From the IMG/VR virus record IMGVR_UViG_2534681834_000006: 64,000 bases of DNA; one strand, written 5' to 3'. The notes beneath the pieces are model-generated. The model was not told where the DNA came from. It did not search any database and saw only the letters and a program-made list of their open reading frames with translations. Position 1 is the stretch's first letter, and every line of letters begins with the position of its first letter. The stretch is from a virus (Duplodnaviria > Heunggongvirae > Uroviricota > Caudoviricetes). The translations under genes and the position numbers were made by a program. This document shows, in pieces, positions 45,070 to 45,895 of this stretch.

Positions 45070-45315
45070 TTGGCAGAGCGTGTTGATGATGCAGAGCTGA
45101 GCATGAATCAGTTAGAAGCTCTCAAAGACATGGCCATCGATAACATCAGAAAGCAGGCACAGGTCGTGAGTCAGGTATTTACAGGGAAGTGTCGTTACTG
45201 CAATGAACCGATTGAATCAGGCATCTATTGTGACGCTGAGTGTGCGCAATGGCACAGGGAAGAGCAGGCCGCAAAACAGCGTAAATATGGCATGCGACCG
45301 GCAGGATTTGACTGA
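45070..45315 (+). CDS. TraR/DksA-family C4 zinc-finger protein
   Basis: CRYCNEPIESGIYCDAEC; TTG start after gagga RBS. Confidence 0.5.
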   Translation: MAERVDDAELSMNQLEALKDMAIDNIRKQAQVVSQVFTGKCRYCNEPIESGIYCDAECAQWHREEQAAKQRKYGMRPAGFD

Positions 45316-45562
45316 TTGTGTTGCGCTTTACTGAGGAAGAGTTTCAGGCTTTTAGTGAGCGTCGAAATAAGGGGCGGTCCAGGCCAAAAACCAAAAGGAT
45401 CCATTCTTATCGCTTGCGCCGGTAAAAGAAGTTTCTCCACATGCGAAGGCACTTGCAGCACTGGCAAAGAACCCTGACCTGCGCGACGGAAATTGCGAGC
45501 ACTTCGAGCAGGTTTTCATTTTTGATTACTTCGAACGCAAGCACCCTGACATCTATGAGCTG

Positions 45563-45895
45563 TTGCATGCAACGCCTAACGGAGGGAAACGTTCAAAAGC
45601 AACCGCCGGGAAAATGAAGGCTGAAGGGCAGAAAAAAGGTTATCCGGACATGAGTCTCGATAAAGCATGCGGTATTTATCACGGCATGCGAATTGAGCTT
45701 AAAGAACCAAATGGTAAAGCCCCGACGAAAGAGCAGATCGCCTGGATGCGCAGGCTTAGAGAGGAAGGTTACTACGTCGTTCTTGCGTATGGTGCAGAAC
45801 AAGCGATAACCGCCATCCTGGAATACATAAGCCTTAAGAAGGGTGAGGCTATTGAGCATGTATTGAACGGCGACAAGTGGTTGTATGCTGCTTAA
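45563..45895 (+). CDS. VRR-NUC domain nuclease (N-terminus possibly missing or frameshifted)
   Basis: HATPNGGKRS...GYPDMSL...RIELKEPNGKAPTKEQIAWMRRLREEGY fits VRR-NUC; track start is TTG. Confidence 0.55.
   Translation: MHATPNGGKRSKATAGKMKAEGQKKGYPDMSLDKACGIYHGMRIELKEPNGKAPTKEQIAWMRRLREEGYYVVLAYGAEQAITAILEYISLKKGEAIEHVLNGDKWLYAA

Follow-up and report, generated by a model that had tools for sequence, protein, structure and literature searches.

A pmgM-type VRR-NUC nuclease gene with a very probable private frameshift in a P1-like plasmid prophage

Among the described systems, the prokaryotic and phage VRR-NUC proteins are dimers which cleave four-way DNA junctions, and their E-PD-ExK Mg2+ site is stabilised by a conserved Gln; the dimeric four-way-junction cleavage is shown only for psNUC, stNUC and saNUC (Pennell et al. 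2014, PMC4103454). For phage P1, the VRR-NUC gene pmgM is reported as non-essential for lytic growth by CRISPRi, with an efficiency of plating of 0.38, and a deletion survey, as represented by its entries in a table of the same paper, likewise scores it as non-essential (PMC10695390).

Here we present the analysis of a related locus in a stretch of 64,000 nucleotides, referred to below as the window, the whole of which we assign by its sequence to a P1-like (Punavirus) plasmid prophage. With 1 kb around the site as the query, 19 phage records are matched at 96.7-98.8% identity, namely P1, P7, RCS47, SJ46 and other Punavirus genomes, and the annotated features under these matches are pmgL, pmgM and pmgN. 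The 14-kb block around the locus is collinear with P1-like plasmids, and the synteny is common to the window, P1 and P7, with the divergent 26/25 tail operon followed by pmgL-pmgM-pmgN-pmgO-pmgP-ppp. Comparison of the ORF layout with the P1 and P7 annotation confirms the position of the pmgM orthologue between pmgL and pmgN, adjoining the divergent 26/25 operon. Positions 45318-45895 are identified on these grounds as pmgM (P1_gp086), a predicted 192-codon VRR-NUC / PD-(D/E)XK nuclease gene, and over 1 kb P1 pmgM and the window have 97.3-97.4% nucleotide identity. In P1 (NC_005856, PmgM YP_006552.1) and in P7 (NC_050152, Upf81.2 YP_009914557.1, where the gene is named upf81.2), pmgM is an uninterrupted 579-bp ORF; it is the same gene at the same place, with the same start position and stop and about 97% nucleotide identity. 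The window differs from both in that its start is GTG 45318 and not ATG, and in that one A is missing from an A5 run, by which the ORF is split. The label of PmgM, 'putative morphogenetic function', is positional only, and NCBIfam holds no model for PmgM or PmgL.

Reading frames at the pmgM locus

The region 44900-46200 was read and its ORFs were listed, giving the features below.

45070-45315, + strand: pmgL, the upstream gene of the same operon, with a match to phrog_54 (DksA-like zinc finger, E = 1.7e-13)
45303-45306, + strand: Shine-Dalgarno-like AGGA, 11 nt 5' of the pmgM start and within the 3' end of pmgL, putative in function
45318-45425, + strand: 5' fragment of pmgM, consisting of the GTG, native codons 1-26, 9 out-of-frame codons (RIHSYRLRR) and TAA
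45393-45396, + strand: the lesion, an A4 run that is A5 in P1, P7, vB_EcoM-673R5 and NZ_CP122822.1; a one-base deletion after codon 26
45395-45895, + strand: 3' fragment of pmgM in the -1 frame, with native codons 27-192, TAA and the entire VRR-NUC domain
45497-45499 (E61), 45647-45649 (D111), 45695-45697 (E127), 45701-45703 (K129) and 45734-45736 (Q140), + strand: codons of these residues in the 3' fragment
45563-45895, + strand: mechanical ORF of 110 aa from a TTG (codon L83), not a credible start

The frame of the start codon reads (M)LRFTEEEFQAFSERRNKGRSRPKTKRIHSYRLRR from GTG 45318, with its last sense codon ending at 45422 and the stop TAA at 45423-45425, and this 5' fragment aligns with codons 1-26 of P1 and P7 pmgM. 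The nuclease frame is open from 45371, after the TAA at 45368-45370, to the TAA at 45893-45895, and encodes ...KDPFLSLAPVKEVSPHAKALAALAKNPDLRDGNCEHFEQVFIFDYFERKHPDIYELLHATPNGGKRS...GYPDMSLD...RIELK..., so that the two frames overlap at 45371-45425. All of this bears out the first-pass annotation, which had opened the nuclease frame at 45371 and had ended an overlapping upstream frame at 45422. It was also right in finding neither ATG nor GTG before the conserved core of the nuclease frame, where TTG 45563 is the first candidate start; 5' of that codon the frame has no ATG, GTG or TTG, only CTG, ATT and ATC codons. The A-rich tract in which the two frames were said to meet, ccaaaaaccaaaagg, is present, with its coordinates at 45384-45398, one base below the 45385-45399 given at first.

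What fails is the suggestion that the gene has no conventional start. The gene has one in GTG 45318, preceded by an AGGA (45303-45306) at a distance of eleven bases; most relatives have ATG at this position, and the stop TGA of pmgL lies 2 nt 5' of it. PGAP picks the identical GTG in the plasmid record NZ_CP122822.1, and among 89 whole-gene IMG/VR loci the start codon is ATG in 83 and GTG in 6, the GTG minority allele being found with intact ORFs as well.

Alignment of the window with P1, P7 and vB_EcoM-673R5, a check proposed together with the frameshift, finds the homologues intact and a single gap, one missing A, which falls in the second A-run of the tract, while the first A5 run is unaffected. 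The codons at the deletion are T25 K26 K27 D28 (ACC AAA AAG GAT), located in a basic linker which has low confidence in the predicted PmgM structure. The window holds no uninterrupted 192-codon ORF, the gene being broken by the deletion at 45393-45396 and the premature TAA at 45423-45425. When joined, the two fragments give the 192-aa protein with full-length similarity to P1 PmgM, and the phrog_2363 profile (192 positions) matches residues 1-192 of the repaired protein. Chance does not account for the pattern, since the two pieces line up in order along a single 192-aa protein that P1, P7 and the nearest relative have, with one A missing. The earlier reading as a frameshift, either a pseudogene or a sequencing error, thus holds to the extent that one homopolymer base is missing and that the LRFTEEEFQAF frame and the VRR-NUC frame are one gene.

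We are therefore highly confident that the pmgM of the window, otherwise ordinary, carries a frameshift that is private and non-programmed, and no observation contradicts this. One A is missing from the A5 run encoding Lys26-Lys27 in the linker; translation from GTG 45318 terminates prematurely as a result, after 35 codons, and the nuclease domain is left in the -1 frame, where it lacks a start codon that could be used. The window sequence, taken as it is written, encodes no PmgM nuclease.

Two observations concern the neighbouring genes. PmgL, for which the P1 annotation offers nothing beyond 'putative morphogenetic function', shows the pattern CxxC...CxxC (CRYCNEPIESGIYCDAEC) and matches the DksA-like zinc-finger family phrog_54. 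Downstream, the pmgN/hdmA ORF (45920-46117) is in frame with the nuclease frame of pmgM, separated from it by the TAA at 45893-45895 and eight codons. In two clusters derived from Logan, P0001 and P0003 (266 aa, 7 member sequences), Leu takes the place of this stop, and PmgM and PmgN are fused in frame.

The predicted PmgM nuclease and the TTG start

The repaired PmgM matches PDB 4QBL (psNUC VRR-NUC) by sequence over residues 77-180 with E = 3.5e-17. The Pfam VRR_NUC model (PF08774) gives the repaired protein 21.2 bits and the 110-aa fragment 22.3 bits, with a gathering threshold of 23.8, and a precomputed PF08774 match is present in many PmgM homologues. The E-PD-ExK signature and the Gln are found as E61, P110-D111, E127-x-K129 and Q140, all of them encoded in the -1 frame of the window. 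In an alignment of 60 homologues with 35-75% identity to PmgM, the invariant residues are E61, Q65, P87, G89, G90, R92, D111, E127, K129 and Q140, and H62 and P110 are nearly invariant. The AlphaFold model built with this alignment has a pLDDT of 91.4 and predicts helices at 60-75, 138-149 and 160-171 and strands at 83-85, 112-114, 124-129 and 153-158. The 4QBL chains rank first among its PDB matches (E = 8e-10, TM 0.83, rmsd 2.3 A), and 4QBN, 4QBO and the FAN1 nuclease domain come next.

On the whole, intact PmgM has a helix (TEEEFQAFSERR) on its N-terminal side, followed by a basic linker and by a VRR-NUC domain that carries the E-PD-ExK site and is of the Holliday-junction-resolvase type. 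It has a matching predicted fold and the same E-PD-ExK and Gln motif as psNUC, the stand-alone VRR-NUC Holliday-junction resolvase, while differing from it by an identity of only about 30% and by roughly 55 extra N-terminal residues that form a helix, the basic linker and a helix. By analogy with psNUC, PmgM may also dimerise and cleave junctions, and we infer that it could resolve junctions or branches in the replication or recombination intermediates of P1 ahead of packaging.

This architecture bears directly on the proposal that TTG 45563 is a genuine start and that the product is a 110-aa, N-terminally shortened nuclease. The TTG is indeed the first ATG, GTG or TTG of the nuclease frame, and the fragment translated from it retains D111, E127, K129 and Q140, with the Pfam VRR_NUC score given above. 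However, no Shine-Dalgarno sequence is found 5' of it, and in the AlphaFold model the TTG corresponds to L83, which would be the first residue of beta-strand 1 (83-85). Because the predicted helix 60-75 precedes this strand, a product begun at the TTG would be without the first acidic residue of the E-PD-ExK site, losing invariant E61 and Q65 and nearly invariant H62. Nor does any homologue start at the TTG position: the homologues have ATG or GTG starts upstream of it, the minimal ones of 120-126 aa begin with M-(S)-E-H-x-x-Q, which is the E61 helix, and this E-H-x-x-Q helix precedes the TTG even in the 124-aa forms. There is likewise no recorded gene with exactly the 110-aa product. We regard a genuine start at the TTG as very improbable, and the TTG-start 110-aa 'VRR-NUC protein' of the mechanical gene call is, on the frameshift reading, an artefact of the one-base gap.

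Recoding and the distribution of the A-run forms

Programmed -1 sites, such as A AAA AAG in E. coli dnaX and those of IS3-family transposases, share with the pmgM locus the overlapping frames, the A-rich tract and the -1 shift. One rival reading is that ribosomes shift into the -1 frame on the A-rich tract, by a programmed or a leaky event, or that transcriptional slippage occurs there, and that PmgM is made at nearly full length (...RSRPK-NQKDPF...); programmed slippage was among the options offered at first. A -1 shift would be needed, the frames overlap at 45371-45425, and a tRNA-Lys on AAA 45387-45389 could re-pair with AAA 45386-45388. Unlike the dnaX and IS3-family sites, however, the pmgM locus has no heptamer, no downstream stimulator and no conservation. 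The 0 frame of the overlap contains no heptamer of the form X XXY YYZ, and only single-tRNA A_AAA re-pairing is available there. For the downstream 84 nt (45397-45480), the minimum free energy is -13.7 kcal/mol, while the shuffles average -18.1 (z = +1.44); the segment is less stable than the shuffles, of which 191 out of 200 fold at least as well. The two-frame arrangement is not conserved either: the relatives found are in frame and have A5 only, including a sibling plasmid that is 99.99% identical here. Runs known for transcriptional slippage are far longer than 4-5 A, and this counts against slippage at the present site. With no heptamer, no stable RNA structure and no conservation, programmed slippage is rejected as hardly credible. 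A low-level -1 slippage of tRNA-Lys on A_AAA that partly rescues PmgM expression is judged to be just as improbable, and the pmgM copy of the window should not be tallied as a case of recoding.

The private nature of the frameshift is seen from the distribution of the two forms. The 76-mer of the window with A4 is found at 100% identity in 0 of 466 plasmids, 0 of 475 E. coli RefSeq records and 0 of 19 phages. Its best matches have 98.7% identity and cover the 77 bases of the A5 form, and all rows among the matches listed span 77 bases, with the limit that an A4 form carrying a further substitution could in principle sit beyond the plasmid and E. coli matches listed. In 185,579 GTDB species genomes, IMG/VR and JGI metagenomes, nothing matches the A4 27-mer exactly, while the A5 28-mer is exact in 97 IMG/VR contigs and the repaired A5 77-mer is present with at least 99% identity in 331 of 460 plasmids. 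Neither the 35-aa frameshifted peptide nor the 110-aa TTG product has an exact entry across public assemblies, and so the allele has no independent sighting.

The same data speak to the idea that the A-run is a phase-variable (contingency) switch, in which reversible slippage turns pmgM on and off. The lesion is a change of homopolymer length, as such a switch would produce. Against this, no change in the length of the A-run was seen in the collections searched (no match for the A4 27-mer, and the 331 of 460 plasmids for the A5 77-mer), and where pmgM is damaged in other relatives, both the site and the kind of lesion differ. Phase switching at an appreciable rate would, moreover, need a run longer than 4-5 bases. 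Because the arrangement is not shared by relatives and the run is so short, phase variation is rejected, with a probability that we consider close to nil.

Among the 89 IMG/VR loci, namely the contigs with the A5 28-mer that span the whole gene, 87 have the intact 192-codon ORF, and the other two carry different lesions: in one (L082), GAA is changed to TAA at codon 103, a nonsense codon at invariant E103, and in the other (L068), an additional T near the 3' end causes a frameshift within the last ~10 codons. Shortened or frameshifted PmgM are also found as clusters of 161 aa (P0014) and of 112 aa (P0015, 108 member sequences), and a pmgM copy in ENA (P0100) has multiple frameshifts. The lesion of the 112-aa cluster was guessed to be an 8-bp deletion, which has 0 matches in the IMG/VR scan. 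The lesions in other relatives are consistent with a dispensable gene, with error-prone assemblies, or with both.

The nearest relative and the origin of the missing base

The window's closest record, NZ_CP122822.1, is a plasmid (unnamed6) of the pig ETEC strain E. coli ETEC1731. In the whole-window comparison, the two share four collinear blocks of 99.98-99.99% identity, about 60 kb in all, and around the locus 14,001 bases of the window align to 14,002 bases of the plasmid with an identity given as '100.0%'. In this plasmid the PGAP annotation has a 579-bp VRR-NUC gene (WP_000943609.1, VRR-NUC domain-containing) that is intact and begins at the same GTG. The DNA of this gene is that of the window, GTG start included, save for the missing A, and the 3' fragment of the window is identical to residues 27-192 of the intact protein; the plasmid thus has an intact ORF, unlike the split copy of the window. 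The differences between the two sequences are, altogether, the missing A, a missing T in a T7 run, six transitions, the orientation of an insertion sequence (IS), and the IS content. In the 23-kb block holding pmgM, only the missing A and one transition are found.

As to the cause of the frameshift, we lean towards a one-base homopolymer contraction introduced as an assembly consensus error, and a real recent slippage mutation giving a pseudogene has a chance approaching even. Both indels between the window and NZ_CP122822.1 are one-base homopolymer contractions, whose local sequences are exact in no other record. The second one is a T6 run in the window (24058-24063, + strand) against T7 in the plasmid, placed at 24064 and non-coding; an 81-mer around it is found at 100% identity in 0 of 446 plasmids. 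The site lies about 25 bp past a P1-type parS site, downstream of parB. Homopolymer-length errors are a leading class of nanopore consensus errors, being the main one after Dcm-motif errors (PMC6591954). Such private homopolymer contractions are the classical signature of residual long-read consensus errors, and they are equally the signature of replication slippage.

Several further points bear on this choice. The window has 302 homopolymer runs of at least 5 bases (202 of 5, 84 of 6, 14 of 7 and 2 of 8), and in the ~60 kb shared with NZ_CP122822.1 only two homopolymer runs differ. All the others agree with the sibling, which speaks against an assembly prone to error throughout. A ratio of two indels to six substitutions would also be normal for real divergence. 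Methylation motifs flank the A-run, a Dcm site at 45379-45383 (CCAGG) on one side and a Dam site at 45398-45401 (GATC) on the other; as the deletion is outside both motifs, they give only a weak hint of a basecalling error. On the biological side, the loss of pmgM, if real, would be tolerated, given its non-essential score and the other disabling lesions that relatives carry. That the missing A is real, and that the prophage has recently lost its PmgM nuclease of the Holliday-junction-resolvase type, may be put at somewhat below an even chance.

The main value of the result lies in annotation and quality control, as the gene is already known and no new biology follows from the lesion. The proper annotation of the locus is pmgM, frameshifted, to be corrected if reads show A5. 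If the deletion is real, it would be a further example of pmgM being dispensable for a P1-like plasmid prophage, in agreement with the published knock-down and deletion data. In that case, together with the E103 nonsense codon, the 3' frameshift and the shortened relatives, it would point to a recurrent decay of a dispensable recombination or packaging nuclease in long-term plasmid carriage.

The remaining differences between the window and its nearest relative involve insertion sequences. An IS4-family element is located at 17179-18548, which may resemble IS186, with a 426-aa transposase at 17244-18524 (NF033592, E = 1.6e-38) and inverted ends of 39 nt, target duplication included. It is reversed relative to the copy that NZ_CP122822.1 has at the very same site, while the orientation of the flanking duplication is kept; this may possibly reflect an independent insertion at a hot spot, a flip in place, or an orientation error of the assembly. 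IS91 (52564-54388 of NZ_CP122822.1) and IS1203 (28006-29315 of NZ_CP122822.1) are absent from the window, and the sites of these differences in IS content are at 30079-30080 and 53323-53325 of the window. Finally, positions 357-2391 of the window (2035 bp) stand in place of 971 bp of NZ_CP122822.1, beside the IS3-family element of that plasmid.
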